Of a stretch of 64,000 nucleotides of DNA, positions 9,275-62,083 are shown one piece after another; position 1 is the first letter of the stretch; every line of letters starts with the position of its first letter. A model generated the notes under the pieces. It saw only the letters and a list, made by a program, of their open reading frames with translations, had not been told where the DNA came from and ran no database searches. The DNA is taken from positions 11,506 to 75,505 of the forward strand of contig JAIPGG010000001.1 of NCBI GenBank assembly GCA_021736255.1, read 5' to 3'. A program made the position numbers and the translations under genes. Origin of the DNA: Spirochaetales bacterium. Lineage in GTDB: Bacteria > Spirochaetota > Spirochaetia > JAIPGG01.

Positions 9275-10348
9275 ATGCATCTGACCGAGATTTCTTTGCC
9301 GGAACTCTATCATACATCGGGCAGCAGCAGCCTCTTCCAGAGTGCTTTCTGGGGAAAATTCAAATGGAATGTCGGCCATGAGGTTCGTTCCTTCCGGGTC
9401 GAGTTTCGCGGTGAATACCGGAATCTGATTGTCGTTTTCCGCTCGTTTACCGGAGAAAGCTGTTTCGGCTATGTACCCTATGGGCCGGACGTGGATTTGC
9501 CCGAGGATTCCCACGGATTCTTTCTCGAAGAGATTGCTGAAAATCTGCGACCGCAGATGCCGGCAGGCTGCGTTTTTCTTCGCTTTGATCTGCCCTGGCA
9601 GAGCCCCTATTACAATGTTTACCCGGCGAAAACTGGTGGTGATGATGAGGTTCCCGATTCCAGGTTGCGTGAGCTTCGAATGAACTTCGGCAGCGCCTAC
9701 CGGAATCTCCGCAAGGCGCCTACCGACATGCAGCCGGTGGACACGGTCCTTATCGATCTCAGCCTGCCGGAGGACAAGCTCTTCCGCCGGTTTAAGCAGA
9801 AAACCCGATACAATATCCGTCTTGCAGAAAGAAAGGGCCTGCGGGTCAACTCTGCGCCGGTCGATTCGCTCTCTAGATGGTACGATTTGTATCGACTGAC
9901 GACCGAACGCAAGGGAATCGTTACCGAGGATTACTCCTACTTCGAACGACTTATTACTACCTCCCGGCATTGGATGCCGGACATCCAGCTGCTTCAGGCA
10001 TTCCATGGCGATACGGTGGTTGCAGGCATCCTGGCCGCGTTTTTCAAAGACCGTGCCTATTATCTCTACGGCGCTTCGGATTATTCACAGCGCCATCTTA
10101 TGGCACCCCAGCTGCTTCAGTGGGAAGCGATTCGCATGGCCGCAAGGCGGGGCTGCCGCTGGTACGATCTCTTCGGGATCCCCCCAACAGGCGAGCGTCA
10201 CCATCCGATGCACGGCTTGTACCGTTTCAAGACCAGCTTCGGCGGCCGGATCTATCACTGGCGTGGCTGCTGGGATTATCCCCTGGAACCCGATCGGTAC
10301 GACGGTTCCGTACTGCCTGCCGCACTTTTGAACCAGTATCACCTCTGA
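9275..10348 (+). CDS. FemAB-family aminoacyltransferase (peptidoglycan bridge formation / GNAT-like) protein
   Basis: 'QSAFWGKFK' and the overall length/pattern match the FemAB/lipid II:glycine glycyltransferase family. The listed ORF starts at 9173, but I prefer the first ATG in a good context at 9275 ('MHLTEISLPELY'). Confidence 0.55.
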   Translation: MHLTEISLPELYHTSGSSSLFQSAFWGKFKWNVGHEVRSFRVEFRGEYRNLIVVFRSFTGESCFGYVPYGPDVDLPEDSHGFFLEEIAENLRPQMPAGCVFLRFDLPWQSPYYNVYPAKTGGDDEVPDSRLRELRMNFGSAYRNLRKAPTDMQPVDTVLIDLSLPEDKLFRRFKQKTRYNIRLAERKGLRVNSAPVDSLSRWYDLYRLTTERKGIVTEDYSYFERLITTSRHWMPDIQLLQAFHGDTVVAGILAAFFKDRAYYLYGASDYSQRHLMAPQLLQWEAIRMAARRGCRWYDLFGIPPTGERHHPMHGLYRFKTSFGGRIYHWRGCWDYPLEPDRYDGSVLPAALLNQYHL

Positions 10349-10434
10349 TTTTTCTCGTCTGACGGCAATATACGACGAAATTCCGATAGCTTGCTGAATC
10401 GATTTTCCACACTATAGAACTCCGAACAGGAGAG

Positions 10435-11544
10435 GTGGATATGAAAAGAAAAGCAAAGAAAGACAACAGAGGTTTTTGGGTAAAGGTTTCGGCGGCTGCA
10501 GTCCTTTCGGGGCTGCTGGGGTTTGCTGTCGTCGGTTGTGCCGGTACCGATCCGATCACGGATGAGAGGGGAAACCCGGTGGAGGGAAGTATTTCCTCCC
10601 TGGAGAAGGTAATGATCGGCGGTACGGAACAAAGCATTTTGATTCGCGGGCATGACCGGGAAGCACCGGTCCTTCTCTGGCTGGCCGGAGGACCGGGTGG
10701 ATCAGAGTTGGGCTGGACACGAAAGTATCTGAATGAGCTGGAGCGGGATGTCGTTTTTGTGAATTGGGAGCAGCCGGGGGCCGGCAAGTCCTTTTATGCC
10801 GCAGATTATTCAACAATCGAAATCCAGGACTATGTGGATGATTTGGTTGAATTATCCCTTTATCTGGCAAAGCAATTTGGAAAGGACCGAATTTTTCTTG
10901 CCGGACACTCTTGGGGATCCATTATCGGGCTGATGGCAGCTGAACAGCGTCCTGACCTTTTTCACGCTTATATTGCGGTAGCACAACACGTGAATGCAAT
11001 AGAAAACGATCGTATTGGATACCGGATGGTTCTCGAAGGAGCCCGTAAGCGTGGGCATCAAGCGGTGGTCGATCGGCTCAAAGAGTTCGGCCCTCCTCCT
11101 TACAAGAGGGAACATGGAGAACGGTACATCTATCTCTTTCAGAAACTACCGGCATATACTCCCGCTCCTGCGGGATTGAAGGAGCCTGCATTCAAGGAGA
11201 TGGCATTTCCCGAGGAATATTCATTGTTGGACAGCCTCTTGATGGTCCGTGGTCTGTTATTGGGAGTGAAGAATGTCTATCCCCAGTTGGCGGATCTGGA
11301 TTTCGAACGAAGCACCAAGGTTTTAAAATTGCCGGTCTTTTTTATGACAGGCCGTTACGATGAAACCTGTGATCAGGATATCGCCTATCGTTACTTCCAG
11401 GGGCTCGAAGCCCCGAAGAAGGAGTTTTTCTGGTTCGAAAAATCTGGGCACAATCTGTGCTATCAGGAAAATGATTACTTTATCAAGCTGATTCGGGAAG
11501 AGGTTCTTCCCGTAGCCCTTAATAGTAAAGGAGAATACAAATGA
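10435..11544 (+). CDS. Alpha/beta-hydrolase fold lipoprotein (proline iminopeptidase-like)
   Basis: Signal peptide with lipobox 'VVGCAG'; nucleophile elbow 'GHSWG'; 'LWLAGGPGGS' resembling the HGGPG oxyanion motif; 369 aa. Confidence 0.7.
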   Translation: MDMKRKAKKDNRGFWVKVSAAAVLSGLLGFAVVGCAGTDPITDERGNPVEGSISSLEKVMIGGTEQSILIRGHDREAPVLLWLAGGPGGSELGWTRKYLNELERDVVFVNWEQPGAGKSFYAADYSTIEIQDYVDDLVELSLYLAKQFGKDRIFLAGHSWGSIIGLMAAEQRPDLFHAYIAVAQHVNAIENDRIGYRMVLEGARKRGHQAVVDRLKEFGPPPYKREHGERYIYLFQKLPAYTPAPAGLKEPAFKEMAFPEEYSLLDSLLMVRGLLLGVKNVYPQLADLDFERSTKVLKLPVFFMTGRYDETCDQDIAYRYFQGLEAPKKEFFWFEKSGHNLCYQENDYFIKLIREEVLPVALNSKGEYK

Positions 11545-12149
11545 AGAATCGTGTAATGATCGTTGTGTGTTTGTTGTTTGCCCTTGTAGCCGGTTTGGCC
11601 GTTCTCGGTGCTGAAGAGGCAGCAGAACCAAAACAGAAGGGCCTGGAGGTTTCTTTGTCGGTCGGTGCCACCATGTTCGATGGAGAGGCGGCGGGAATGC
11701 TTGCGGCACGGCTTTCCTACGGGCTTTGGGATTGGATGGAGGTCGTCCTCGACGGTACTGCTCTTCACACTTTGGAACGGTCGTATCGTGATGAGGAGGG
11801 AAAGGCTTATCAGGCAGGAGTAGGCTGGGCCTCGCTGGGATTGCGCCCGCATATAAATTTGGGGGAGAGGATCGAGATCGGATTTCCCCTGACCTCAGGA
11901 AGCGGTATCGTTCAGTATCGATACGAATATGGCTACCGGGATGATTTGGTATGGACGGACGAGATCCTCGACCAGGTTACTGTCGGTGTTACCACTGTTG
12001 GGATGGACATCCTAGTGAATATCAACGGTAACTTTCTATTGTCGGTGGAAGCCGGCAGTCGGTTTTCCTCGCCGTTGGATTCTCCTCTGGCCCGGGACAA
12101 TGCTCTTACTTCCTGGTACACAGGTCTGCGCGCGGGTTTTGCGCTCTAG
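11541..12149 (+). CDS. Secreted hypothetical protein, possibly a small outer-membrane beta-barrel; translationally coupled (ATGA overlap) to the upstream hydrolase.
   Basis: Signal peptide 'MKNRVMIVVCLLFALVAGLAVLGA'; alternating hydrophobic/aromatic beta-strand pattern; C-terminal 'LRAGFAL' aromatic-x-hydrophobic end typical of OMPs. Confidence 0.4.
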   Translation: MKNRVMIVVCLLFALVAGLAVLGAEEAAEPKQKGLEVSLSVGATMFDGEAAGMLAARLSYGLWDWMEVVLDGTALHTLERSYRDEEGKAYQAGVGWASLGLRPHINLGERIEIGFPLTSGSGIVQYRYEYGYRDDLVWTDEILDQVTVGVTTVGMDILVNINGNFLLSVEAGSRFSSPLDSPLARDNALTSWYTGLRAGFAL

Positions 12150-12215
12150 CCTAACGTACCCGGAAATGCCCGGATTCTAGTTGACCTGCTTGTTCACCCG
12201 GCATACTATAGCCGG

Positions 12216-13121
12216 GTGAATCATTTTGTTCTCCTGCTCTATATTATCCTGGTCACATTAAGCGGCGGCGGGGTCCTGGCTCTTGCTCTTCTCAACCAGC
12301 GTCTGCAGCATCGGTTCACTTCGTTTCTACTTATAGTAAACACGGCACTTTTAGCTTCACTGTTGCTGAGGATTATCTCTTCTTTTATGTCGGCGGTATT
12401 GATCCAGAGCTTTCTCGATGGTATCGGCGGATATGTGATTGGTTTTTTCCTCGGAGTGTGTGTGTACGGGGGAACGACCCTTGCCCTGCTTACCCTTCCC
12501 AAGGTTCCGAGAAAAACGCTCCTTGGAGTCTTTGCTGCTGTGGTGCTCGTCATGGGAGGGCAGCTCTATCTCCTGCTGTCTGGACGAGTGGAAACGGCAT
12601 ATCACATGCGCATTCCTGAAATGATTGCTATTTCCGCATACCTGTTTTTTCTTGGCCGGCTTATGTATAAAAAGGCGGCCGGTGCCGGCCAGGAAACCCT
12701 GGTCTGGCTGATCAAAACCCTGGGCATTCTCACCTTTCTTTTTGCCCTTGTTTCGACAGGAATCTATCTGATCCTGTCTCTCGTACCCGGGTTTTCGGAC
12801 CTCGGGATCTCTCTGGATTATTTTTATTATTTCGGATGGAGCGCTGTGTCGGTTGCCGCTCTGATACGCTATCTGACCCGCCCGCATGCCCTGATTACAG
12901 GAGGCCAGGTGAGTGATGCCTTCTGCAGGGGCTTTGGCGTCACCGAAAGAGAGCGGGAGGTGATCGAACGAATAAGCCGCGGTATGACGAACCAGCAGAT
13001 TGCCGATGACATGTGTATTTCATTTACAACAGTCAGGACGCATGTATATAATATCTTCCGTAAATGCGAAGTAAAAACCCGGGTAGAACTTTTACAGGTG
13101 CTTTCAGGATACACCGAATAG
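12216..13121 (+). CDS. Membrane-anchored LuxR-family transcriptional regulator (about 6-7 TM helices plus a C-terminal LuxR/GerE HTH)
   Basis: C-terminal 'REREVIERISRGMTNQQIADDMCISFTTVRTHVYNIFRKCEVKTRVEL' is a classic LuxR-type HTH. The N-terminal 230 aa are strongly hydrophobic with multiple helices. Confidence 0.6.
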   Translation: MNHFVLLLYIILVTLSGGGVLALALLNQRLQHRFTSFLLIVNTALLASLLLRIISSFMSAVLIQSFLDGIGGYVIGFFLGVCVYGGTTLALLTLPKVPRKTLLGVFAAVVLVMGGQLYLLLSGRVETAYHMRIPEMIAISAYLFFLGRLMYKKAAGAGQETLVWLIKTLGILTFLFALVSTGIYLILSLVPGFSDLGISLDYFYYFGWSAVSVAALIRYLTRPHALITGGQVSDAFCRGFGVTEREREVIERISRGMTNQQIADDMCISFTTVRTHVYNIFRKCEVKTRVELLQVLSGYTE

Positions 13122-13131
13122 GATTCGAAAT

Positions 13132-14337
13132 ATGGACCAGCAAAACCGGACAAGCCCGAAAAACCAGCTCAGGATAGGTATGGTCGGATACGGGGGGATA
13201 GCCGGGGTACACCTGCTCGGCTACCGCGGGATTCCCCTCTATTATCCGGATGCCCTGCCGCCGATTTCCATGCAGGCGGTCTGTACCAGCCGGAAAGAGA
13301 CAGCCGCCGAGGCCGCCCGGCACGGCGGGTTTGCGGCTTTTTATACGGACCTCGAGCGGATGCTCGCAGAGCAGGAGTTGGACGTGGTGGATATTACCAG
13401 CCCCAACCATCTCCATTACCGGCAGGTCCTGCAGTGCCTCGAAGCGGGGGTGCCGGTCTACTGCGAGAAGCCTCTTGCATTAAACGGCCTTGAGGCCGAA
13501 GAGATCGCCCGGCGTTCTGAGGAGCTCGAAGTTCCGGTGGGAATGACCTTTCACTACCGGTTTGTTCCGGCCTTGATGGAGGCCGGTCGGATGGTGGAAT
13601 CCGGACTTCTTGGGCGGGTGTATCATTACCGGGCCCTCTATCTGCACTCCGGTTATCAGAGGCCGGAACGCCCATTCTCCTGGCGCACGGACCGCAGCCG
13701 TTCAGGGGGAGGTGCCGTGGTGGATCTCGGTGCCCATGTGATCGATCTTATTCGTTACCTGGTTGATGAGATAAGTCAGGTGCGGTCGGCTTTCGAGACC
13801 TTTGTTCCCCGGCGTCCGGATGCCTCGGGCCGGATGGTCGATGTCGAAGTAGACGATGCTGCTTGGGTGCAAACTCGGCTGGCCGGCGGCGGTTTCGGTA
13901 CCATCGAGGTCTCCCGTTTTGCTACCGGTACCCTGGATGACCTGATTATCGAGGTACATGGAGAGAAGGGTGCCTTTCGATTCAGCCTGATGCAGCCCCA
14001 CTGGCTCGAATGGTACGATGCACGGTCCCCGGTTGAGAGGGGTGACCATTCAAGAGAGGAAGACCGGCAGACCGGGAGAGCAGCAGAAACTCTCTCTTCC
14101 TACGGCGGTTGGACCCGAATTGATACCGTGCAGAAGTTCCCCGGGGCCGCAGTGCCTCCCGGTCGTGCCGTTATGGGCTGGGACCGGCTGCATGGCGAAA
14201 GCCAGTACCGGTTTCTCCGTTCTCTTACCGGTACAGATCCCTTCAAACCGGATGCACATGACGGTTTGAAGACCCAGCGGATTCTCGATGCCGTTATACA
14301 GTCGGCGGGCAGCGGCCGCTGGGAAGCGGTAGAATAG
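13132..14337 (+). CDS. Gfo/Idh/MocA-family NAD(P)-dependent oxidoreductase
   Basis: N-terminal Rossmann 'LRIGMVGYGGIAGVHLLG', 'DITSPNHLHYRQVLQCLEAGVPVYCEKP' (the family EKP motif), and a C-terminal alpha/beta domain. Confidence 0.75.
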   Translation: MDQQNRTSPKNQLRIGMVGYGGIAGVHLLGYRGIPLYYPDALPPISMQAVCTSRKETAAEAARHGGFAAFYTDLERMLAEQELDVVDITSPNHLHYRQVLQCLEAGVPVYCEKPLALNGLEAEEIARRSEELEVPVGMTFHYRFVPALMEAGRMVESGLLGRVYHYRALYLHSGYQRPERPFSWRTDRSRSGGGAVVDLGAHVIDLIRYLVDEISQVRSAFETFVPRRPDASGRMVDVEVDDAAWVQTRLAGGGFGTIEVSRFATGTLDDLIIEVHGEKGAFRFSLMQPHWLEWYDARSPVERGDHSREEDRQTGRAAETLSSYGGWTRIDTVQKFPGAAVPPGRAVMGWDRLHGESQYRFLRSLTGTDPFKPDAHDGLKTQRILDAVIQSAGSGRWEAVE

Positions 14338-14344
14338 CTGTCCC

Positions 14345-14385
14345 AAGCCGTCCGAATGGATGGGCGGCCTTTTAGCTGCAACAGC
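14345..14385 (+). terminator. Possible intrinsic terminator after the Gfo/Idh/MocA gene
   Basis: Imperfect hairpin 'GCCGTCC-gaatg-GGATGGGC' followed by 'GGCCTTTT'; a weak call. Confidence 0.25.
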
Positions 14386-14438
14386 CATGAAATCCCCGGC
14401 GTTGCGTATATTTGAGGGTGGTTTATACTTAGTATGTA

Positions 14439-16142
14439 ATGTTCTGGAATTCCCGAAGAACTATACGAGCAGTCATCCCGCCGCTTTTCATATTCATTTT
14501 ATTTGCCGGAGTTCTTTTTTTTATCATTATTCCGCAGTCACGGTCGCTCCTTTTTCATCAGATACAAAAGAACAGTGAGGACAATGTTGATCTTGTGCTC
14601 AGGTTGATCGAGTATCATCACAGCAGGGCAGAAGAGGGCGAAATTCCGGTAAGCACGGCAAAACAACGCGCCCTCGATCAGGTTCGGAATCTGCGCTATG
14701 GGCCACAGGAGCGGAACTATTTCTGGATCTGTGATTATCAGCCGATACTGCTCATGCACCCCTATCGAAGCGATTTAGAAGGAAAAAACGTCGGATCATA
14801 TACAGACCCTGAAGGAAACAAGGTCTTTCAGGAAATGGTTGAACTCGTTAAGAAAAGGGGAGAGGGGTATACAGACTACCAGTGGCAATTCCATGGTGAT
14901 CGGTCTCAGGTAGTTTCGAAACGGTCTTATGTCGAGGGTTTTGAACCCTGGCAATGGATCGTAGGGACCGGTATTTACCTCAGTCAAGCTGAAGCGCTCA
15001 TAGACCGGCTGATTCGTTCTTCTACACTAATTGCCCTCATAGCTCTGGCTGTTATCGGATTCGGGGCGTTCTTCCTGGCAAATCGCTCGATTCGCCTCTT
15101 GAGAATATTCGAAACGAGTCAGGCCAATCTTGAGCTCGCCAATCGACAGTATCGTGATCTCGTGGAAACGATGAATGACGGCTTGATTGTGCTCGACCGG
15201 CAGTGGAATATTCGGTACACGAATAAAGCATTTCAGAATATGTTGGATTATACCCAATCCGAATTGGCGGGAAAGCATCTCGACCAGATTGTGCCGGTTT
15301 CCGAGCGTACGATACTCGATGAACAGTTGGAGAAAAGAAAAAAAGGGGAAGATGAGCCCTACGAGATTACATTTAAAAGGAAAAATGGAAAGGTAATTGA
15401 GTGTGTATGCTCCCCGAAACCGATATTTACCCGTGAGGGACTCTTTCACGGGAGTTTCGCCGTGATAACGGATGTGAACACGTTGAAATCAGTGCAAAAA
15501 GATTTGGAAGCAGCTCTTGAAGAAAAGAACCTTCTGCTGCGCGAGGTCCATCATCGGGTAAAAAACAATCTCCAGATTATCTCGAGTATGCTCCACTTGC
15601 AGCAGGAGTCGGTAACGGACCAGAATGCCTGGGCTGCTTTGCGCGATTCCCAATATCGTATCGAAACCCTTGCTCTCGTACATTCGTTCTTATACAGCTC
15701 CGAACAATTCGGTACAATACCCTTGCCTGAATACATCAATGATTTAGTTGCCTCCTTGAGTTCTGCATACGATGTACATGGGAGGAACATTACCATTTCT
15801 GCCGATGTGGCGGATATCGAAATCGGTATCGATCAGACGAATCCCTTGGCGCTGATAATTACCGAGCTGGTTACGAACTGCTTGAAACACGCTTTCCCGG
15901 AGAGGGATACCGGGAGCATCGAAATCACCGTGGCTTACGAGAAGGAACAGGCGGCCGGCACGGTAACCGTGTCTGACAACGGAATCGGGATACAACAAAA
16001 CAGGCAGGACTCCGGTTCGATAGGCATGATGCTGGTCCATGCCATGGTCGATCAGCTGAACGGCAGTATCGAAGTCCATTCCAATGAAGGGACGGTGATA
16101 ACCATTACGGCACCTCTGAAAGTTAAAAATCAGAAGGGATGA
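14439..16142 (+). CDS. Membrane sensor histidine kinase: periplasmic Cache-like sensor domain, PAS domain, HisKA_2 (HWE/HisKA_2-type) dimerisation domain and HATPase
   Basis: Two TM segments flank a roughly 150-aa extracytoplasmic region. PAS region 'MNDGLIVLDRQWNIRYTNKAF'. HisKA_2 signature 'EVHHRVKNNLQIISSMLHLQ'. HATPase motifs 'ELVTNCLKHAF', 'VSDNGIGI', 'GSIGMMLV'. No response regulator is adjacent. Confidence 0.75.
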   Translation: MFWNSRRTIRAVIPPLFIFILFAGVLFFIIIPQSRSLLFHQIQKNSEDNVDLVLRLIEYHHSRAEEGEIPVSTAKQRALDQVRNLRYGPQERNYFWICDYQPILLMHPYRSDLEGKNVGSYTDPEGNKVFQEMVELVKKRGEGYTDYQWQFHGDRSQVVSKRSYVEGFEPWQWIVGTGIYLSQAEALIDRLIRSSTLIALIALAVIGFGAFFLANRSIRLLRIFETSQANLELANRQYRDLVETMNDGLIVLDRQWNIRYTNKAFQNMLDYTQSELAGKHLDQIVPVSERTILDEQLEKRKKGEDEPYEITFKRKNGKVIECVCSPKPIFTREGLFHGSFAVITDVNTLKSVQKDLEAALEEKNLLLREVHHRVKNNLQIISSMLHLQQESVTDQNAWAALRDSQYRIETLALVHSFLYSSEQFGTIPLPEYINDLVASLSSAYDVHGRNITISADVADIEIGIDQTNPLALIITELVTNCLKHAFPERDTGSIEITVAYEKEQAAGTVTVSDNGIGIQQNRQDSGSIGMMLVHAMVDQLNGSIEVHSNEGTVITITAPLKVKNQKG

Positions 16143-16148
16143 ACAAGA

Positions 16149-17780
16149 GTGGAGACCAATCATACGGAAAAGCCTCTGGCCATCCTGATCAATCCTCCGG
16201 TTTATGATGCTGCCCTGTACGATCTCTATCTACGCCCTTTCGGGCTCTTGAGGGTGGGTGCGTGGCTTCGCTCGGCCGGATGGAACACGGTCTATGTGGA
16301 TGCTCTTCGGATCGACGATCCGTCGTCTCTGAAGACTTTCGGTCGGCCGAGGCGGAAAGCGGACGGGACAGGGCATTTTTTCCGCCGGCCGCTGGAGTAC
16401 TCAGATCTTGCCGGGCTATTTTCTGAGCCCAAGGCACGGGAGATATTCTCTGTATACGGGGAGGCAGGGCGGCGGCTTTCTCGTTACGGTGTACTCGCCG
16501 AGTCCTTCAGGAGCATGCTGCAGGATGCGGCAGAAGATGGATCGGCTGCCGGCGGCAGAAAACCCGATCTCTGTCTGGTTCAGGGCGGAATGACCTACTG
16601 GTACCCGGGAGTGCTCGAGACGGTGCGTCTTTGCCGGGAACTGTGGCCGACCGTTCCGGTTGCCGGAGGCGGCGTGTATCCGACCCTTTTACCCGGCCAC
16701 GCAGCACAGATCTGCGGCCTGGATGCGGTCGTCTCGGGGAATGATTTTTCTTCCCTCATCGAGATGTTTAAACACCGGTCTCTGCCGCAGCCGGCGGAAG
16801 CAGCTCCCCCCGTCGTTTCATCGGTTTACACAGGCGGCGATTCGGCGGTGCTCCGGTTGAATATCGGCTGCCCCTACCGCTGCAGCTACTGTGCCTCCGG
16901 ATTGGTCTCCGGCGCTTTTTGTGCCGGCAGTGCCGTCCAGGCGGCGGAGGCTGTTTACGATCTGTGGGAACGGAGGGGAGTGCGGAACTTTGCTTTCTAC
17001 GATGATGCGCTTCTGGTGAAGAAAGAGGAGGTTCTGCTGCCCTTTCTCGAGGCTGTCTCCGAAATAGCAGGCAAGCCGATCGGCAGGCAAGGTGGAGGGC
17101 TTCCCGGATCTGTTGCAGGCGGCAGCCCCGGCGGCACCCCTATCGGCAGCCCCAACGGCAGCCCCAACGGCAACCCCAACGGCAACCCCAACGGCAACCC
17201 CAACGGCAGCCCCGGCGGCACCCCTAGCGGCACCCCCAACGGCACCCTCAGCGGCAGCCCCAACGGCAGCCCCAACACGGGGGGCGAAAGTCCCCCGTGC
17301 TTCTATCTTCCCAATGCCCTGCACGCGGAACTCCTCGATGAACGGACTGCCCGACTGTTAGGACAGGCGGGATTTCAGGAGATCCGTCTCGGGCTTGAAA
17401 GCGCTTCGGATGATTTTCACCGCCGGCAGGATTCCAAACTCGATGAACAGGTTTTCTCCGATGCTGTCCGGATGCTGTTCTCCGCAGGTTTTCACGGCGA
17501 TCGGATCAAGGCTTATGTGCTTGCCGGAATACCGGATCAGACGGCGGAAGAAGCGGAAGAAACGATACGTTTTGCTCTGCGGCTCGGGATTCGGCCGATG
17601 GTTGCTGAGTTTTCACCGGTGCCAGGGACCGAACTGTTCGAGTCGGCACGACGGCAAAGCAGTTTCGATCTTGAGGAACCACTGTTTCAAAATAATTCGG
17701 TTTTTCCCATGGCTTCCCGGTATTTTTCCCGGCCGGAACTGGAACGGCTCAAACGGCTCTCTCGGCAACCGAAAGCTTAA
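16149..17780 (+). CDS. B12-binding-domain radical SAM protein, with an internal low-complexity [S/T/N]-P-x-G tetrapeptide repeat insert
   Basis: N-terminal cobalamin-binding-like region. Radical SAM cluster motif 'CPYRCSYC' (CxxxCxxC). It lies 7 nt downstream of the histidine kinase stop, so co-transcription is likely. It contains a 52-aa G/P/N/S repeat tract. Confidence 0.7.
   Translation: METNHTEKPLAILINPPVYDAALYDLYLRPFGLLRVGAWLRSAGWNTVYVDALRIDDPSSLKTFGRPRRKADGTGHFFRRPLEYSDLAGLFSEPKAREIFSVYGEAGRRLSRYGVLAESFRSMLQDAAEDGSAAGGRKPDLCLVQGGMTYWYPGVLETVRLCRELWPTVPVAGGGVYPTLLPGHAAQICGLDAVVSGNDFSSLIEMFKHRSLPQPAEAAPPVVSSVYTGGDSAVLRLNIGCPYRCSYCASGLVSGAFCAGSAVQAAEAVYDLWERRGVRNFAFYDDALLVKKEEVLLPFLEAVSEIAGKPIGRQGGGLPGSVAGGSPGGTPIGSPNGSPNGNPNGNPNGNPNGSPGGTPSGTPNGTLSGSPNGSPNTGGESPPCFYLPNALHAELLDERTARLLGQAGFQEIRLGLESASDDFHRRQDSKLDEQVFSDAVRMLFSAGFHGDRIKAYVLAGIPDQTAEEAEETIRFALRLGIRPMVAEFSPVPGTELFESARRQSSFDLEEPLFQNNSVFPMASRYFSRPELERLKRLSRQPKA
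17121..17276 (+). repeat. In-frame 12-nt tandem repeat (about 13 units; core 'AGCCCCAACGGC'/'AACCCCAACGGC') encoding (S/N/T)-P-(N/G/S)-G tetrapeptides within the radical SAM gene
   Basis: Direct reading: '...agccccaacggcagccccaacggcaaccccaacggcaaccccaacggcaaccccaacggcagccccggcggc...'. It translates to 'GSPGGTPIGSPNGSPNGNPNGNPNGNPNGSPGGTPSGTPNGTLSGSPNGSPN'. Confidence 0.85.
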
Positions 17781-18898
17781 CGAGCACCGTTATCTTCCAG
17801 ATCCATGTCGGGAGCGTTCCCTACTATTCCTGCAATGATCTTGTTCAGTGCACTGAAAGGGCTCTGGTCCCCGTTGAGGATGGTATAAACCCCGCTGATT
17901 ATAGGCAGCTTGAGATTGTACTCCTCTGCAAGGTGCATGGCATGTTTTGCCGCTACGACTCCCTCCGGCAGATAACCGATCTCCTCGATACGCCGGATCA
18001 GGTCTTCGATGCCGTTGAACCTGCTCAGTTTCCGGTCCAGTATAATCTCCCGGCCGAATCTTCGGTTCCTCCCGTACTTGCTCCGGCAGGTAACATCCAG
18101 GTCGCCTACTCCGGCTATGGAGGTGAAGGTTTCCGGATAATTCGATCCGAGGGCCTTTCCCAGAAGCTGAATCTCGTTGAGTCCGGCAGCCAGAAGCAGC
18201 GATTCAGTGTTGTCGCCGAATCGGTTGGAAAGCTCTTTCAGAGCGTCCAGCATCCCAAAGGCCAGGGCGATTACGTTCTTCACGGCGGCGCTGGTTTGCA
18301 CCCCAACCACATCCAGAGAGGAAAAAACCATGAGGGTTGAAGAGCTCAGCAGCTCACGGAACCTGATTGATTCCTTGCCGTTACTCGAGGCGCTGATTAA
18401 ACCGGTTATCTTGCCCCTGGCCACCTCTTCGGCATGGCTGGGGCCGGAAAGATATACGAGTCTGTCCTGATAATGGTCCGGCAGCATCTCTTCTAAAGCA
18501 GTGACAATCAGTTTCGGCCGGCCGGCGCTTTCGAGAAAGCCTTTTGTCAGGATTCCTATACTCGTTGTTCCCGACAGGATGTTTGGTGCATCGATGATTT
18601 TCCGGAAGGTATCGAGGATGAAAAGAGAGGGAGCGGCCAGGATAAGAAAATCCTTATTTTCTACCGCTTCCGAAATATTGCAGGTCGCGCTGAGGGAGGG
18701 GGGCAGGTCCACTCCCAAAAGATAGCGGCTGTTTTCATGTTCACGGTTGATGTCTCGGGCTACGTCCTCTTCGTAGCTCCAGATTTCTACCGGATTACCG
18801 GCAAGAGCAATACTTCTGGCGATGGCCGTCCCCCAAGCCCCGGCGCCGATGACGCCCACCCGTTGAGGGGTTCCCGTATGTGTTCCGTTTTCTGCCAC
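17777..18898 (-). CDS. gpsA: NAD(P)H-dependent glycerol-3-phosphate dehydrogenase
   Basis: 'VGVIGAGAWGTAIA' NAD-binding motif, 'LSGPSHAEEVA' catalytic region, roughly 340-aa core. It is convergent with the radical SAM gene, with a 4-nt overlap. Confidence 0.85.
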   Translation of the reverse strand: MAENGTHTGTPQRVGVIGAGAWGTAIARSIALAGNPVEIWSYEEDVARDINREHENSRYLLGVDLPPSLSATCNISEAVENKDFLILAAPSLFILDTFRKIIDAPNILSGTTSIGILTKGFLESAGRPKLIVTALEEMLPDHYQDRLVYLSGPSHAEEVARGKITGLISASSNGKESIRFRELLSSSTLMVFSSLDVVGVQTSAAVKNVIALAFGMLDALKELSNRFGDNTESLLLAAGLNEIQLLGKALGSNYPETFTSIAGVGDLDVTCRSKYGRNRRFGREIILDRKLSRFNGIEDLIRRIEEIGYLPEGVVAAKHAMHLAEEYNLKLPIISGVYTILNGDQSPFSALNKIIAGIVGNAPDMDLEDNGAR

Positions 18899-51596: not shown

Positions 51597-52670
51597 ATGA
51601 ATGCCGGAGCGAATTTCCTGCAGCGCCTTCTCGGGCGTCTTTCGAAGCGGAATGCAATCAAGGAATTGCGCAACAGGATTGCAGAAAAAGGGATCGAGAG
51701 CATCGATCATGAATACGTTGGAGAACTGGAATCGCGATACGGCGTTTCCTTCGATCGCGATCTTTCCGAAGAAAGGAAAGCCGTGTATAGAGATTTTCTC
51801 GATGCGTGCCTGACCGACAAATGGCTCGACAACAATGAAATCAGCGAGCTCCGCAGGCTGCGGGATCTCCTCGGGCTGACTGATCGGCAGGAACGGGAAG
51901 TGCGGGAAGCGGCAGTTACAGAGGTCTATCGGGAAACATTGAAAGAGGCGTTGGCCGATAATGAGATCAACGAAGATGAACGCCGCACCCTGCAGCTCAT
52001 GCAGGAGAACCTGGCCATTTCCGAAGAACAGGCTGCGCGTATTTACCGGCAAACGGCTACCGAGCGTCTGCAGTCTATTCTCGACAAGGCGATCTCCGAC
52101 AAAGAGCTTTCCCCGGAAGAAGACAAAGAGATGGAGCAGGTGGCACGGAATCTCGGGATAACCCTTTCCTTGTCCGACAAGACGAAAGCTGCACTCGAGC
52201 GCTACCGTCTGTACTGGCAGATCAAAAACGGCGAGCTTCCCGAGCCGGCGGTGACTTTGAATCTGTCCAAAGGGGAACACTGTCATTTCTTTGCCAATAT
52301 CAACTGGTACGAACTCCAACAGGTGACTCGGCGGACTCGCTCGGGCGGGCCGACATTTCGGCTAAAGTTGATGAAGGGAATCTATTGGCGGATGGAGAAT
52401 CTAGGGCTTCGGCGGCTCAGTGAAGATGAAATGACCCTCGTCGACAGCGGTACGGTTTATCTAACCAACACGCGTCTCTTGTTTCTTGGTTCACGGAAAA
52501 ACAGTATGATCCGGTTGAATAGCATTTTGGATTACGAGGTCTATTCGAATGGGGTTCAGCTGCAAAATAGTTCAGGAGCAAGCCCGTTTTTAGAGTTCTC
52601 GAAGAACGTGGATCTTTTTGCCCTGATTCTTGCCCGTCTGCTCCGACAGAGAAGCTATTCCAAACAATAA
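51597..52670 (+). CDS. Hypothetical protein with N-terminal TerB-like helical repeats and a C-terminal bacterial PH (bPH/GRAM-like) domain
   Basis: Repeated 'ISELRRLRDLLGLTDRQ...'/'DERRTLQLMQENLAISEEQ...'/'EEDKEMEQVARNLGITLS...' helical units. The C-terminus 'MTLVDSGTVYLTNTRLLFLG' resembles the bPH beta-strand pattern. Weak evidence. Confidence 0.3.
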   Translation: MNAGANFLQRLLGRLSKRNAIKELRNRIAEKGIESIDHEYVGELESRYGVSFDRDLSEERKAVYRDFLDACLTDKWLDNNEISELRRLRDLLGLTDRQEREVREAAVTEVYRETLKEALADNEINEDERRTLQLMQENLAISEEQAARIYRQTATERLQSILDKAISDKELSPEEDKEMEQVARNLGITLSLSDKTKAALERYRLYWQIKNGELPEPAVTLNLSKGEHCHFFANINWYELQQVTRRTRSGGPTFRLKLMKGIYWRMENLGLRRLSEDEMTLVDSGTVYLTNTRLLFLGSRKNSMIRLNSILDYEVYSNGVQLQNSSGASPFLEFSKNVDLFALILARLLRQRSYSKQ

Positions 52671-52701
52671 TCATTCGCGATTACAGCCTTTTCTTATTAT
52701 A

Positions 52702-54678
52702 ATGAAAACTATGGAAAATGTTTTTTCAGGAAATTCCGGGGAGGGGTGTTTTGATTATCAGCAAGCCGCAGAGGACCTGAGGGCCGAAAGCGGTGCAAAA
52801 TATGTAGTCTTCAACGAGCTCATCAGGGGCGAAAAGCTTCTTGAAACAAGGGCAATAGCAGGGGGAAGTGAACAGATTCGCAAGGCCGCCGGTTTCCTCG
52901 GGCTCGATCTTGTCGGTTCGAAATGGGAACCGGATGAACTCGTAGAGCGAGTGATCAATATGCCCAGCCTGAGTTATCTCGGAACACTTCCCGATGTAAG
53001 TATGAACCAAATTCCCGCGCCGCTGGGCCTCGCTGTGTCCCGGATGTTCGGGGTTGATGCTGTCTATGGAATGGGGCTTCAAACCGGAGGGGAAAAACTC
53101 GGGTTCTTCCTTTTTTTTCTTAAGAAGGGAGAGGAGCTCAGGAATGCTTCGCAGCTCGACCGGATCATCCGGTATATCGGCATAGCCCTCAAGGCCGTAC
53201 GGGAGAGGAACGCCCTGCCGGCGGGGGATGTGCTCGGTGACATCCGGGTGGAATCAGAGCGGGAGGAAATCGAGGAAGCTCTGGTTCCTGAAATCCTCTA
53301 CCAACTCGATGACCAATCGCGCGTTGTTTTTCTCAGCCGCGCCATAACCCGGTATGGATATCAGCCGGAAGAACTGATCGGCCGGAGTGTGTTTGAAATC
53401 ATTCATCCCGAGGACCGGGAACGAGCCCAGTGGCGGATAAACGAGCGGCGCACAGGGGAAAGACGTACCTTTCAGTTCGAACTCCGCCTGCTTCCAAAGG
53501 ACCGGGAGCCAATACGCTTTTCAGTTTACGGGTATCAGCTGGAAATCGATCCGGTAATTGTTATCGATGCCAGGGGCTTATACCGGGAAGATGAGGCCGG
53601 AAAGAAAACCTTTCAGGGAACGGTGGGGGTGGCTCGTGATATGACCCAGGTTCGGGCCCTCGAAAAGCAGCTTTCGGAGCAGAAAATCATCTCCGACACC
53701 ATAGCAGAGGCTATTCAGGAGGCAATATGGGTTGAGGAATCCGGTCCCAAGCGAATTCTGTATGTTAATAAGGCCTTCGAGAATATGTTCGGGAACTCTG
53801 AAGCCTGGCTCTCGGTCGTCCACCCGGAAGACCGGGAAAAGATGAGAAAGCGAAGCGAAGACCCTGCTTCCACAGAGGAGTTTCGGGAATACCGCATTCT
53901 CTCCGGTGATAGCGTGCGGTGGATCAGGTCCATTCTCTTTCCTGTTCGGGTTGATGCGGAGGGGACCCCCAACCGCTTCGTAGGGCTTGCTGAGGACATC
54001 ACCTCCCTCAAGGAGAGAGAAAATGAACTAAAGCAGTCCCTGGAAGTGAAGACTCTGCTGATGCGGGAGATTTATCACCGGGTAAAAAACAACCTGATGA
54101 TTATCGACAGCATCATTTCGCTCGAATTGGCTGATATGCCCGACAAAGATATGTCCGCGCGCAGCGTCCTTCAGAGCGTTCAGTCGCGGATCGCCACCAT
54201 GGGGATCATACACCAGATGCTGTTTCGCGATTCGGGGCACAGTGATGCGCGGCAGGGAGAGCTGGATATACGGGAGTATCTTGACTATTTGCTCGATTAT
54301 CTGCTGAGAAGCTTGACCGAGGACCCGGGAAGGATTCGAGTCCATTCTCAGGTCGATACGATAATGCTTGATTCTGATCAGGCGGTGCCTCTTGGGTTGA
54401 TTGTAACGGAACTGATAATAAACGCGCTGAAGTATGGTTTTCCAGAAGGACGCTCCGGGCGGCTCGAACTCCACTTTCAGGAAATCGGTGAGGAGTATCA
54501 TCTCATCGTATGGAACGATGGTCCTCAGTATGGAAAAACCGGTACGAATCAGAACGGGGTGCACTTGGGTTTTCAACTCATCGAGACCCTCACCGAGCAG
54601 CTGGACGGCAGATGCATCTTTCCCGAAGAGGGCGGGGATGCCCGGTTTGAGATAGTAATTCCTCGGCGTTCGGATTAG
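52702..54678 (+). CDS. Cytoplasmic sensor histidine kinase: GAF-like domain, two PAS domains, HisKA_2 and HATPase (HWE/HisKA_2 class)
   Basis: HisKA_2 box 'EIYHRVKNNLMIIDSIISLE'; HATPase 'ELIINALKYGFPEG', 'VWNDGPQY'; PAS regions 'SRAITRYGYQPEELIGRSVFEIIHPEDRE' and 'KAFENMFGNSEAWLSVVHPEDRE'. The listed ORF starts at 52630; I prefer Met 52702 because it avoids an overlap with the upstream gene. Confidence 0.7.
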   Translation: MKTMENVFSGNSGEGCFDYQQAAEDLRAESGAKYVVFNELIRGEKLLETRAIAGGSEQIRKAAGFLGLDLVGSKWEPDELVERVINMPSLSYLGTLPDVSMNQIPAPLGLAVSRMFGVDAVYGMGLQTGGEKLGFFLFFLKKGEELRNASQLDRIIRYIGIALKAVRERNALPAGDVLGDIRVESEREEIEEALVPEILYQLDDQSRVVFLSRAITRYGYQPEELIGRSVFEIIHPEDRERAQWRINERRTGERRTFQFELRLLPKDREPIRFSVYGYQLEIDPVIVIDARGLYREDEAGKKTFQGTVGVARDMTQVRALEKQLSEQKIISDTIAEAIQEAIWVEESGPKRILYVNKAFENMFGNSEAWLSVVHPEDREKMRKRSEDPASTEEFREYRILSGDSVRWIRSILFPVRVDAEGTPNRFVGLAEDITSLKERENELKQSLEVKTLLMREIYHRVKNNLMIIDSIISLELADMPDKDMSARSVLQSVQSRIATMGIIHQMLFRDSGHSDARQGELDIREYLDYLLDYLLRSLTEDPGRIRVHSQVDTIMLDSDQAVPLGLIVTELIINALKYGFPEGRSGRLELHFQEIGEEYHLIVWNDGPQYGKTGTNQNGVHLGFQLIETLTEQLDGRCIFPEEGGDARFEIVIPRRSD

Positions 54679-60004: not shown

Positions 60005-62083
60005 GTGAATACCGCTGAAGCGGTTGAACTTTCGGAGGGAATATTTTGGGTAGGTCAGGATCAGGACCTGAACGGGCTCCATTGCAACGCCTATCTTTTA
60101 ACCGAAGGCGAGCAGGGAGTGTTGATCGATCCGGGCTCGAACCTCGACTATAAGGAAGTTCACCGCAAGACTACCGGGATTCTCCCGATCGAAAAGCTGG
60201 AATACATTATACTCCTCCACCAGGATCCGGATGTTGCATCGAGTGTCCCGCGGTTTCAGGAGGCCGGCTTTACCGGGCAGATCGCAACCCACTGGCGGAC
60301 TTCGCTCATAGCAGCGTATTATGGAATTAATCCTCCCTGGTATCTGGTAAACAAAAAAGGATATAAAATAGTATTCGGCGGCAGGGAGGAACTCGACCGC
60401 GGCGCAAACAACACCTATGGGGAAGGAGAATTGTCCGCAGGCCGCGAACTCGAAGTCATTCCCGCCCCTTACCTGCATTTTCCCGGCGCTGTCATGATTT
60501 ACGATTCCCGTTCGAGAATTCTTTTTTCCGGGGATGTTTTCGGTGCAATTTCAAAAGACTGGTCGCTTTTTGCCGATTCGAATTACACCGAAGGTATGCT
60601 CCGCTTCCACCGGGAATATGTGCCTTCGAACGATATAATAAGACCGGTGATGGAGAACTTGCTCGAGAGAAAGATCGATATGATCTGCCCTCAGCATGGA
60701 TCAATCATTTCAGATAATATTCCTGAATATATTCGTGCGCTCAGAGATCTTGAATGCGGAATATATTTGGAACCTGTAAGAAAAGCTCTTTTGGAGGATG
60801 TCGGATATACCCATCTGGTAAATAAGGTTCTCGGCGCTCTCGTCGAAAGCTATGGAGTCGCTTCTGTTCTCGAAACCTTTGCAGATACAGATGTCATGTT
60901 GGATCAGGCGACAGGTATGCTGCAGGATTATGCAGGAGATCTGGAAAATCTCTGGAATGAACTCTTTGAACAGATATACATCTTTCGAGGTATTGACTGG
61001 ATAATGCTGCTCGAGCCGTTGGTTCGTAAAATTGAACACAACTACGGCATACATAAACCTGTTATTTACCAGAATGAACTGTTTCGAACACAACAGCAGA
61101 TGAATGTTTTGCTGAAAGAAAAGCAGCGGCTCGAGGCGATCAATCAAAGCCTGAGGAACAACCTCAATTTTACCCAGGAGGCCATGACCAAGGATTCGGT
61201 CACCGGTCTGTTCAATGAGGATTTTTGTGTCCGCTTTCTGCTGAATATTTTCAATCAAGAACAATGGGATGACTTCTCGGTTCTTTTTTTCCTCATCGAT
61301 GATATGAAACAGATTAACTCTACCTATGGTGAACGCGCCGGCAATGATATCCTGGAAAGTACTGGAGCAGTTTTATTTTACCAGAAGCATGACGATGATA
61401 CCTTGTTTAGGATAAGCGGCCCCGCTTTTGCCCTGGTGACAAGTGTCCGGGATCAGGAAGATCTCCTCGGCTATGCGGAAAAATTCAGGGTAAGTATAGA
61501 GAATGACAGAGGGTTCCTCACAAAGGTTACCGTTTCGGTGGGCATTGTCCGGGTGCAGAATAGTAAATTAGCTGAACAGTCCGCTCCTGAAAGCATGGAG
61601 CAGATTTTTTCCCGGGGGAGGATGTCTCTTCGAAGCGTCCAGCGGGAAGGCGGTAACCGTGTGCTTTTCGATTCCGATATACAGGGCAGGGACGAAGACA
61701 ATGGGCGGGCAGTCATTCTGGAATTCGATCAGTTCCATGCCAGACTGATTCGTGAATCACTCGAAGCACTGTCCATCGAAACTCGAGTGTGCATGAATGG
61801 GCCGGAAGCTGTACAAACAGCACTTGAATTTCATCCGGATGTTATCGTTTCAGAACTTTTTCTATTGGAAAATGATGCCTTTAGTGTTCGTGAAGATCTT
61901 ATGGAATATACGAAGACGAAGGACATCCCCTTTATACTCATTTCTCATCAGAAAAACGAAGCCATGGTTATCCGAGCCCAGAGTCTGGGTATACTTCATT
62001 ATATAAAAAAGCCCTATATGCTCCCCGAACTCTTGGGTTTGATTACCAGTTATGTCCAGCAGGCGTTTCGGCATGAGCCTTGA
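60005..62083 (+). CDS. Multidomain signalling protein: N-terminal flavodiiron/ODP-like MBL-fold diiron domain, degenerate GGDEF domain and degenerate receiver (REC-like) domain
   Basis: GTG start with a GGGAGG RBS. N-terminal '[33 protein letters not shown]', '[13 protein letters not shown]', '[11 protein letters not shown]...[10 protein letters not shown]', 'ICPQHGSII' align with the flavodiiron-protein diiron site (HxExDH / H / D / H), with E->D and the fourth ligand H->V. The middle section is GGDEF-like with 'RISGPAF' in place of 'R-GG(D/E)EF'. The C-terminal REC-like fold has '[11 protein letters not shown]', i.e. Glu at the phospho-acceptor position. Confidence 0.65.

Follow-up and report, generated by a model that had tools for sequence, protein, structure and literature searches.

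The histidine kinases of the HWE/HisKA_2 (HPK11) group include the alphaproteobacterial PhyK and LovK, and PhyK has been described as an orphan, a soluble cytoplasmic kinase without an adjacent response regulator (PMC12354254). MctS, a carboxylate sensor, carries its input in an sCache_2 domain. Among the radical S-adenosylmethionine (SAM) enzymes with a B12-like domain, AprD4 (PDB 6fd2) is a 1,2-diol dehydratase, and the class B methylases TsrM, TokK, MgmA, PhpK and those of the BchE/HpnJ type are found in biosynthetic clusters. We analysed a locus in which relatives of both kinds stand side by side. In a 64-kb stretch of DNA from a Spirochaetales metagenome-assembled genome (MAG; GenBank assembly GCA_021736255.1, contig JAIPGG010000001.1, positions 11,506 to 75,505; hereafter the window), the gene of an sCache_2-PAS-HisKA_2 sensor kinase (14439-16142, forward strand) is directly followed by the gene of a B12-domain radical SAM protein (16149-17780, forward strand). 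Both proteins belong to known kinds. A first-pass annotation had taken the two genes for a possible functional module, either a signal-regulated modification enzyme or a kinase whose output is the radical SAM enzyme itself. Gene order in related genomes suggests instead, and we hold this with good confidence, that the pairing is an incidental juxtaposition, probably co-transcribed, of an orphan kinase and a stand-alone enzyme.

The two genes are tightly packed. According to the open reading frame (ORF) list, the kinase gene starts with ATG and encodes 567 amino acids (aa), and the radical SAM gene starts with GTG and encodes 543 aa. The TGA stop of the kinase (16140-16142) and the GTG at 16149 leave a spacer of 6 nt (16143-16148), and a Shine-Dalgarno-like AGAAGGGA (16132-16139, forward strand, read from the sequence) lies inside the last kinase codons, its end 9 nt before that GTG. 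A sequence scan found no terminator-like site between the two genes; a candidate internal promoter is at 15691-15718. Downstream, gpsA, identified by domain and family profiles as the gene of an NAD(P)H-dependent glycerol-3-phosphate dehydrogenase (17777-18898, reverse strand), is convergent to the radical SAM gene, the two stops overlapping by 4 nt (17777-17780). Upstream, a terminator-like hairpin (14347-14368, forward strand; 8-bp stem with six G-C pairs and a weak T tail) follows a Gfo/Idh/MocA gene and likely bounds the transcription unit of the kinase; this is only suggestive, because the fold of 14335-14445 is no more stable than that of shuffled sequences (z = -0.71). With the short spacer, the ribosome-binding site in the 3' end of the kinase gene, the upstream hairpin and the convergent gpsA, a two-gene transcription unit is plausible, and in this respect the layout described by the first-pass annotation is real.

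Outside the window, the pair is almost absent. We collected 160 radical SAM loci (80 from genomes and 80 from metagenomes; 1.40 Mb) and searched them by tblastn with the Cache, PAS and kinase segments of the window kinase and with the kinase of locus L023 as queries; on the kinase side, the contigs of eight full-length orthologues (31-50% identity) were inspected. A related kinase was present at one of the 160 loci, L023, where an sCache_2-HisKA_2-HATPase_c protein without a PAS domain is encoded on the same strand 24 nt downstream of the radical SAM gene, i.e., in the opposite order. Locus L028 has the flanks of L023, with a sigma-54 activator on the upstream side and YgjP-like and FGGY genes on the downstream side, yet no kinase, so the kinase is an insertion or deletion at L023. 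Conversely, a radical SAM gene was found near the kinase at one of the eight orthologue loci, L081, where a 355-aa gene on the opposite strand lies downstream of the kinase and the radical SAM gene follows 1.4 kb downstream. The other seven kinases, none of them near a radical SAM gene, have a sulfatase and two Gfo genes (L082), a cupin and a V-ATPase (L083), an ABC transporter (L084), a sugar-binding protein (L085), an Hpt protein (L166), a divergent REC-HisKA_3/REC-GerE pair (L167) or a Wadjet system (L168) in their vicinity; this includes the three top-ranked homologues in BLASTP/tblastn searches (L166, L082 and L084). No conserved pair of adjacent, co-oriented genes emerged from the other genomes, L023 showing the opposite order and L081 an interrupted one. 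A functional module of kinase and enzyme therefore does not hold up, and a lack of conservation in other genomes was essentially the outcome that the first-pass annotation itself had named as speaking against its proposal.

The kinase and the radical SAM gene might nevertheless form a signal-responsive unit in a spirochaete subclade, in which the kinase would sense an extracytoplasmic cue and co-transcription, or autoregulation through its regulator, would set the level of the enzyme. Such a genuine link would fit the 6-nt spacer, the Shine-Dalgarno-like sequence within the kinase gene and the missing terminator, and it could account for the fact that this type of kinase is met again near the radical SAM family at L081 (kinase upstream) and at L023 (kinase downstream). 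Several observations weigh in this direction and against an incidental pairing: the three juxtapositions of an sCache_2/HisKA_2 kinase with the family (window, L081 and L023), in three arrangements, exceed a naive expectation; a trypsin-like gene is common to L081 and the window; and the sample, made up of the best 80 of about 600 matches per collection, is incomplete. In a subclade of spirochaetes, the two genes may have some weak link of function or regulation. The counts of one in 160 and one in eight, the differing arrangements, the opposite-strand gene that breaks the operon at L081, the top-ranked kinase homologues without a radical SAM gene and the kinase-free L028 all argue against it. 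Moreover, one HisKA_2 kinase was found in the 1.40 Mb around the 160 radical SAM genes and two in the 64 kb of the window, and these densities are compatible with an occasional chance adjacency, which the presence of two such kinases makes plausible in the window. The pairing at L081 may be residual synteny, because the trypsin-like gene is shared with the window. As the densities fit chance, and as order and spacing differ among the window, L081 and L023, we treat the three juxtapositions as sporadic; we regard the signal-responsive unit as unlikely, and rate a real link within a subclade as slightly less likely still.

The short spacer carries little weight, since tight spacing is habitual for this radical SAM gene. 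Of 146 loci, 73 have a divergent upstream gene, and in 43 a same-strand upstream gene lies within 40 nt or overlaps. Ten tightly spaced upstream neighbours that we scanned belonged to ten different families (HEAT-repeat, Na/H exchanger-EIIA, NUDIX, sigma-54 activator, Memo, GlpD-like, MnmE, M32, M48 and CitMHS), and NUDIX and SpoU genes also recur in the tight upstream position. In two Thermodesulfobacteriota loci a Memo-like gene and the radical SAM start share 4 nt (4778-5974 in L033; 1063-2259 in L040). The downstream side is kept as in the window, with a convergent gpsA in 12 loci and an M3 oligoendopeptidase in nine. The upstream side of the radical SAM gene is, judged from this gene order, a synteny breakpoint.

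The kinase has two transmembrane (TM) segments, read from the translation as hydrophobic stretches on either side of the Cache domain, and the order TM, sCache_2, TM, PAS, HisKA_2, HATPase_c. Its extracytoplasmic sCache_2 sensor domain covers aa 44-186 (14568-14996; Pfam PF17200, E = 2.2e-37), its cytoplasmic PAS domain aa 237-346 (15147-15476; PF00989, E = 3.4e-15; TIGR00229, E = 9.6e-23) and its HisKA_2 and HATPase_c domains aa 369-561 (15543-16121; PF07568, E = 2.5e-25; PF02518, E = 5.8e-15), all on the forward strand; HisKA_2 (aa 369-444) is the dimerisation and phospho-acceptor part and HATPase_c (aa 468-561) the catalytic part. The Cache-PAS-HisKA_2 domain calls of the first-pass annotation were right. 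In an alignment of the window kinase with 14 homologues, H371/H372, N480 (N box) and D513, G515, G517 and G529 (G boxes) are invariant, and because the phospho-acceptor histidines and both kinds of box are kept, the kinase looks active. With its phospho-acceptor histidine and its N, G1 and G2 boxes it belongs to the HisKA_2/HWE class, and it has no adjacent cognate response regulator as in a classical paired system. The protein is 100% identical to NCBI MCF7927467.1, a 'cache domain-containing protein' of a Spirochaetales MAG.

With PhyK and LovK the window kinase shares HisKA_2, including the motif E-V-H-H-R-V-K-N-N-L-Q, and the HATPase_c core. PhyK is its best partial match in NCBIfam (aa 352-552), with a score of 164 against a cut-off of 750, and, like PhyK, it lacks an adjacent response regulator. 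It differs in its periplasmic sCache_2 input between two TM segments, PhyK being soluble (PMC12354254), in its spirochaete host, and in that no PhyR, NepR or EcfG genes were seen. The resemblance to MctS lies in the single Cache_2 domain, of which the MctS model matches aa 72-186; the score of 99.9 stands against a cut-off of 700, the transmitter is of the HisKA_2 type, and there is no adjoining MctR-type regulator or transporter.

The absence of a response regulator nearby, also pointed out in the first-pass annotation, holds: in a domain scan of the window, none lies within 44 kb of the pair, and the sole receiver domain belongs to a 692-aa protein with an ODP (metallo-beta-lactamase-like) domain, a GGDEF domain and the receiver (60005-62083). 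Orphan status appears normal for HisKA_2 kinases in this genome, because the second one in the window, a PAS-PAS-HisKA_2-HATPase_c protein of 682 aa (52630-54678), lies between a TerB-like gene and the gene of a metallo-beta-lactamase/cNMP-binding protein, likewise with no adjoining regulator. No response regulator gene was seen in the inspected stretch of seven of the eight orthologue loci; the exception is L167, with a REC-GerE gene two genes upstream. At L166, the gene of P0123, the closest homologue of the window kinase (50% identity), is followed by a convergent gene for a stand-alone Hpt-domain protein of 119 aa (1524-1883), a possible sign that kinases of this group work through a phosphorelay. 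At L168, a Wadjet (JetA-JetB-JetC-JetD) defence system (9827-16242) lies directly downstream of the kinase orthologue.

The radical SAM protein carries the CX3CX2C motif as CPYRCSYC (aa 241-248; 16869-16892, forward strand), the site of the radical SAM [4Fe-4S] cluster. Radical_SAM (PF04055) passes with 42.6 bits against a cut-off of 29.5. B12-binding (PF02310) falls short in the window protein (26.2 bits against 32.1), and most homologues carry precomputed PF02310 matches. The AlphaFold (AF2) model (pLDDT 81, pTM 0.82) has an N-terminal Rossmann, B12-binding-like domain whose fold matches AprD4, TsrM, MgmA, TokK and OxsB, and the B12-domain call of the first-pass annotation is plausible, with the profile score as a qualification. 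Among Foldseek matches (TM 0.4-0.64), AprD4, MgmA, TsrM, TokK and OxsB came first, followed by MiaB, RimO and MtaB; the closest solved structures (AprD4, MgmA and TsrM) attain a TM of about 0.5-0.64. AprD4 was the best match both by fold (Foldseek E = 1.2e-14, TM 0.55/0.64) and by sequence profile (PDB profile search E = 1e-9), and it shares with the window protein the N-terminal Rossmann domain and the radical SAM barrel. The two proteins are, however, 13% identical, the NCBIfam model of AprD4 gives 24.5 against a cut-off of 500, the window has no aminoglycoside cluster, and the family of the window protein has its own insertion in the N-terminal domain. AprD4, although it has such a domain, reportedly does not bind cobalamin. 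A B12-like domain alone would hence not prove the use of cobalamin, and the Rossmann domain of the window protein may or may not hold it; for base-off/His-off binding, no sequence motif is diagnostic.

Classification by hidden Markov models (HMMs), proposed in the first-pass annotation, places the enzyme outside every well-characterised family. No NCBIfam family reached its cut-off; the best was TIGR04479 (PhpK family) with 37 bits against 600, and the models of BchE, HpnJ, AprD4, the ladderane-lipid radical SAM protein, slr0320 and ApyD gave at most 31 bits against cut-offs of 251-775. The class B methylases have the same domain order and a similar fold (TM 0.48-0.54), but the NCBIfam matches to PhpK, BchE, HpnJ and the ladderane-lipid protein are weak and local, with scores 10- to 30-fold below the cut-offs, and the biosynthetic clusters of these methylases contrast with the stand-alone context of the window family. 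A methylthiotransferase of the MiaB, RimO or MtaB kind was considered and rejected: the likeness is one of fold (TM 0.40-0.45), Pfam gave no match to the UPF0004 and TRAM domains that mark these enzymes, and there is no extra invariant cysteine that could belong to a second three-Cys cluster.

A word-indexed search returned 1381 homologues, the best 48-51% identical and mostly about 440-480 aa long; their names go no further than 'radical SAM protein' or 'B12-binding domain-containing radical SAM protein'. The full HMM search gave 876 clusters (at 50% identity) with E <= 1e-30, mostly of 430-500 aa, and among the best 150 members there was no extra matched domain or long extension. The carriers among the genome matches are MAGs of Spirochaetota, Desulfobacterota, Omnitrophota, Calditrichia, Lentisphaeria, Planctomycetia, Bacteroidia and Anaerolineae. 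The family alignment has 76 invariant columns, in which the three cluster cysteines are the sole invariant cysteines, and a family-specific element in the N-terminal domain (R69, G73-T74-G75, R112-Y113-G114 and M148-T-Y-W-Y152), the first three parts of which belong to the insertion that sets the family apart from AprD4. Judged from alignment and profiles, this is a distinct, uncharacterised, large and single-domain family of class-B-like architecture. Given its 876 clusters, uniform lengths, lack of extra domains and occurrence in many anaerobic phyla, it looks like a stand-alone enzyme. A literature search found no paper on it; the matches concerned other B12-radical SAM proteins.

The missing response regulator could also be explained if the N-terminal domain of the radical SAM protein acted as a receiver phosphorylated by the kinase, which would make the enzyme the direct output, as the first-pass annotation had considered. 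The Rossmann domain does have a flavodoxin-like fold, and a few receiver domains appear as weak Foldseek matches at ranks 41-44. Yet there is no Response_reg match in Pfam, the domain resembles B12-binding domains and AprD4, TsrM and MgmA far better, and at the C-terminal end of the third core strand (E141-146 in the model), where receivers have their aspartate, the family has an invariant G-M-T-Y-W-Y. About 160 loci of the family are, in addition, without any kinase. We consider a receiver function of this domain highly improbable.

Equally improbable is a cryptic cassette for a ribosomally synthesised and post-translationally modified peptide (RiPP) or another natural product, in which the enzyme would modify a precursor peptide encoded nearby under the regulation of the kinase. 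B12-type radical SAM enzymes are often part of RiPP pathways, and peptidase genes recur near the family (M3, trypsin-like and M20, with M16 pairs in Syntrophales-type loci). The search for precursor-peptide ORFs, suggested in the first-pass annotation, turned up no convincing small ORF in the intergenic gaps, which measure 101 nt and 6 nt; the candidates were frame-overlapping ORFs or ORFs that extend into the kinase start. Pfam and NCBIfam gave no SPASM/twitch or RRE domain in the radical SAM protein, and the family has three invariant cysteines only. Across the 160 loci neither a small gene nor a transporter nor any other biosynthetic partner was conserved, and the family is single-copy-like, spans phyla and has housekeeping neighbours (Dtd, gpsA, MnmE and SpoU). 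Control of the pair by an RNA element was likewise rejected: at the gathering threshold, Rfam matched two tRNAs in the 64-kb window and no riboswitch or other element, and the leader fold at 14335-14445 is ordinary.

The neighbours of the family give some hints to its substrate. D-Tyr-tRNA deacylase (Dtd) is the divergent upstream gene in 26 Desulfobacterota-type loci (L039, L054-L072 and L101-L165), and a LarB-like AIRC protein is encoded convergently in 16 loci. An M16 peptidase pair lies downstream in 13, the convergent gpsA in 12, a NUDIX gene upstream in nine and PhoH downstream in eight. A gene for a SpoU-type RNA 2'-O-methyltransferase occurs in six loci (L069, L077, L098, L106, L108 and L116), in five of them directly upstream on the same strand, MnmE is upstream in three and the CCA-adding enzyme downstream in three. 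The loci with a convergent gpsA were mostly identified as spirochaete MAGs, several with overlapping or near-zero spacing (L004, L025 and L038). These scattered housekeeping contexts suggest a ubiquitous cellular molecule as the substrate. The family might modify RNA that belongs to the translation apparatus, or else a glycerolipid, a role that would concern the enzyme only and that we put forward as possible yet doubtful. For RNA speak the counts of Dtd, SpoU, MnmE, CCA-adding enzyme and PhoH genes and the fold similarity to MiaB, RimO and MtaB; for a lipid, the convergent gpsA of the spirochaete loci and a GlpD-like gene directly upstream of the radical SAM gene in L041. However, no neighbour accompanies the family from phylum to phylum, and genes in convergent or divergent orientation do not share a transcript with it. 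The family also lacks the TRAM domain and the N-terminal three-Cys cluster of methylthiotransferases and is not uniformly basic. Its pI ranges from 5.5 to 9.2, a spread that is uninformative as a hint of RNA binding. As a guess, RNA or protein of the translation apparatus comes first, on account of the mild excess of RNA and translation neighbours and the resemblance to MiaB and RimO, and a glycerolipid second, on account of the gpsA and GlpD-like neighbours. The Dtd and SpoU pairings themselves are a faint hint of an RNA-related role.

The window protein differs from its relatives by an insertion. Tandem Repeats Finder (TRF) detected an in-frame 12-nt tandem repeat, CGGCAGCCCCAA x 13 (17120-17276, forward strand), which encodes the central part of a (G/S/P/N)-rich stretch of some 70 inserted residues (aa 311-379). 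It sits in a loop that is variable in length in the family, between conserved segments of the radical SAM core, is absent from most homologues and is predicted to be disordered (AF2 pLDDT < 50). Three family members (P0017, P0059 and P0079) have unrelated insertions at the same site. A degenerating enzyme was considered and rejected: of 125 highly conserved columns the window protein departs from 10, where other members depart from 0 to 13, and it keeps all 76 invariant residues; the protein is probably functional despite the insertion. The flanking kinase (MCF7927467.1) and gpsA product (MCF7927469.1) of the same MAG are in the protein collection; the exact 543-aa sequence is absent from it, 51% being the highest identity in the homology search. 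The deposited annotation of the radical SAM gene may have a different start, or its repeat region may differ or have been flagged.

The genes upstream of the kinase are as described in the first-pass annotation. The Gfo/Idh/MocA gene (13132-14337, domain profiles) is preceded, two genes upstream of the kinase, by a multi-TM LuxR/GerE protein (12216-13121) with a C-terminal GerE helix-turn-helix (HTH) and an N-terminal region of about 240 aa with multiple hydrophobic segments; because the Pfam scan found neither a domain nor a receiver in this hydrophobic region, we take the protein to be a membrane-anchored one-component regulator. A conserved pairing of kinase and Gfo gene was rejected, since the Gfo genes of L082 and L085 share no more than 22-26% identity with the window gene and so are not orthologues. 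Base composition gave no case for horizontal acquisition of the kinase: its GC of 0.475 (GC3 0.539) and that of the radical SAM gene (0.600; GC3 0.638) are inside the spread of the window genes (mean GC 0.514, sd 0.034; the Gfo gene also has 0.600) and are not diagnostic.

If the pairing is incidental, a rearrangement in the lineage of the window would have brought the kinase, and with it the genes for Gfo and LuxR, to a position immediately before the radical SAM-gpsA block. Transcription from the kinase promoter would probably run on into the radical SAM gene, as the 6-nt spacer and the lack of a terminator suggest. The sCache_2 domain of the kinase would bind a small ligand, probably a carboxylate; the signal would cross the membrane and the PAS domain, His371/372 would be autophosphorylated, and the phosphate would pass to a response regulator encoded elsewhere in the genome, outside the window. 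The radical SAM enzyme would, as in its superfamily, use the CX3CX2C cluster to cleave SAM reductively to a 5'-deoxyadenosyl radical. We saw no sign of control by the kinase over the enzyme, or of a direct action on it. Taken together, the domain calls, the plausible two-gene unit, the lack of a nearby regulator and the uncharacterised nature of the enzyme remain from the first-pass annotation, and the functional kinase-enzyme module does not, as the pair is not conserved.

It is decidedly unlikely that the sCache_2-HisKA_2 kinases of a free-living spirochaete subclade are tied to this radical SAM family in such a way that an extracellular signal tunes RNA or lipid modification. If this were true, two-component signalling would gain an output of a new kind, and the function of the 876-cluster family could be approached from there; a functional coupling would link environmental sensing directly to a radical SAM modification enzyme, which is unusual. 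The main value of the analysis is negative, in that a spacing of 6 nt is no evidence of a module for a radical SAM gene that is tightly packed against many unrelated neighbours. As a by-product, an unnamed family of radical SAM proteins with a B12 domain is now more clearly defined, a modest lead and a reasonable, though not exceptional, target for enzymology.

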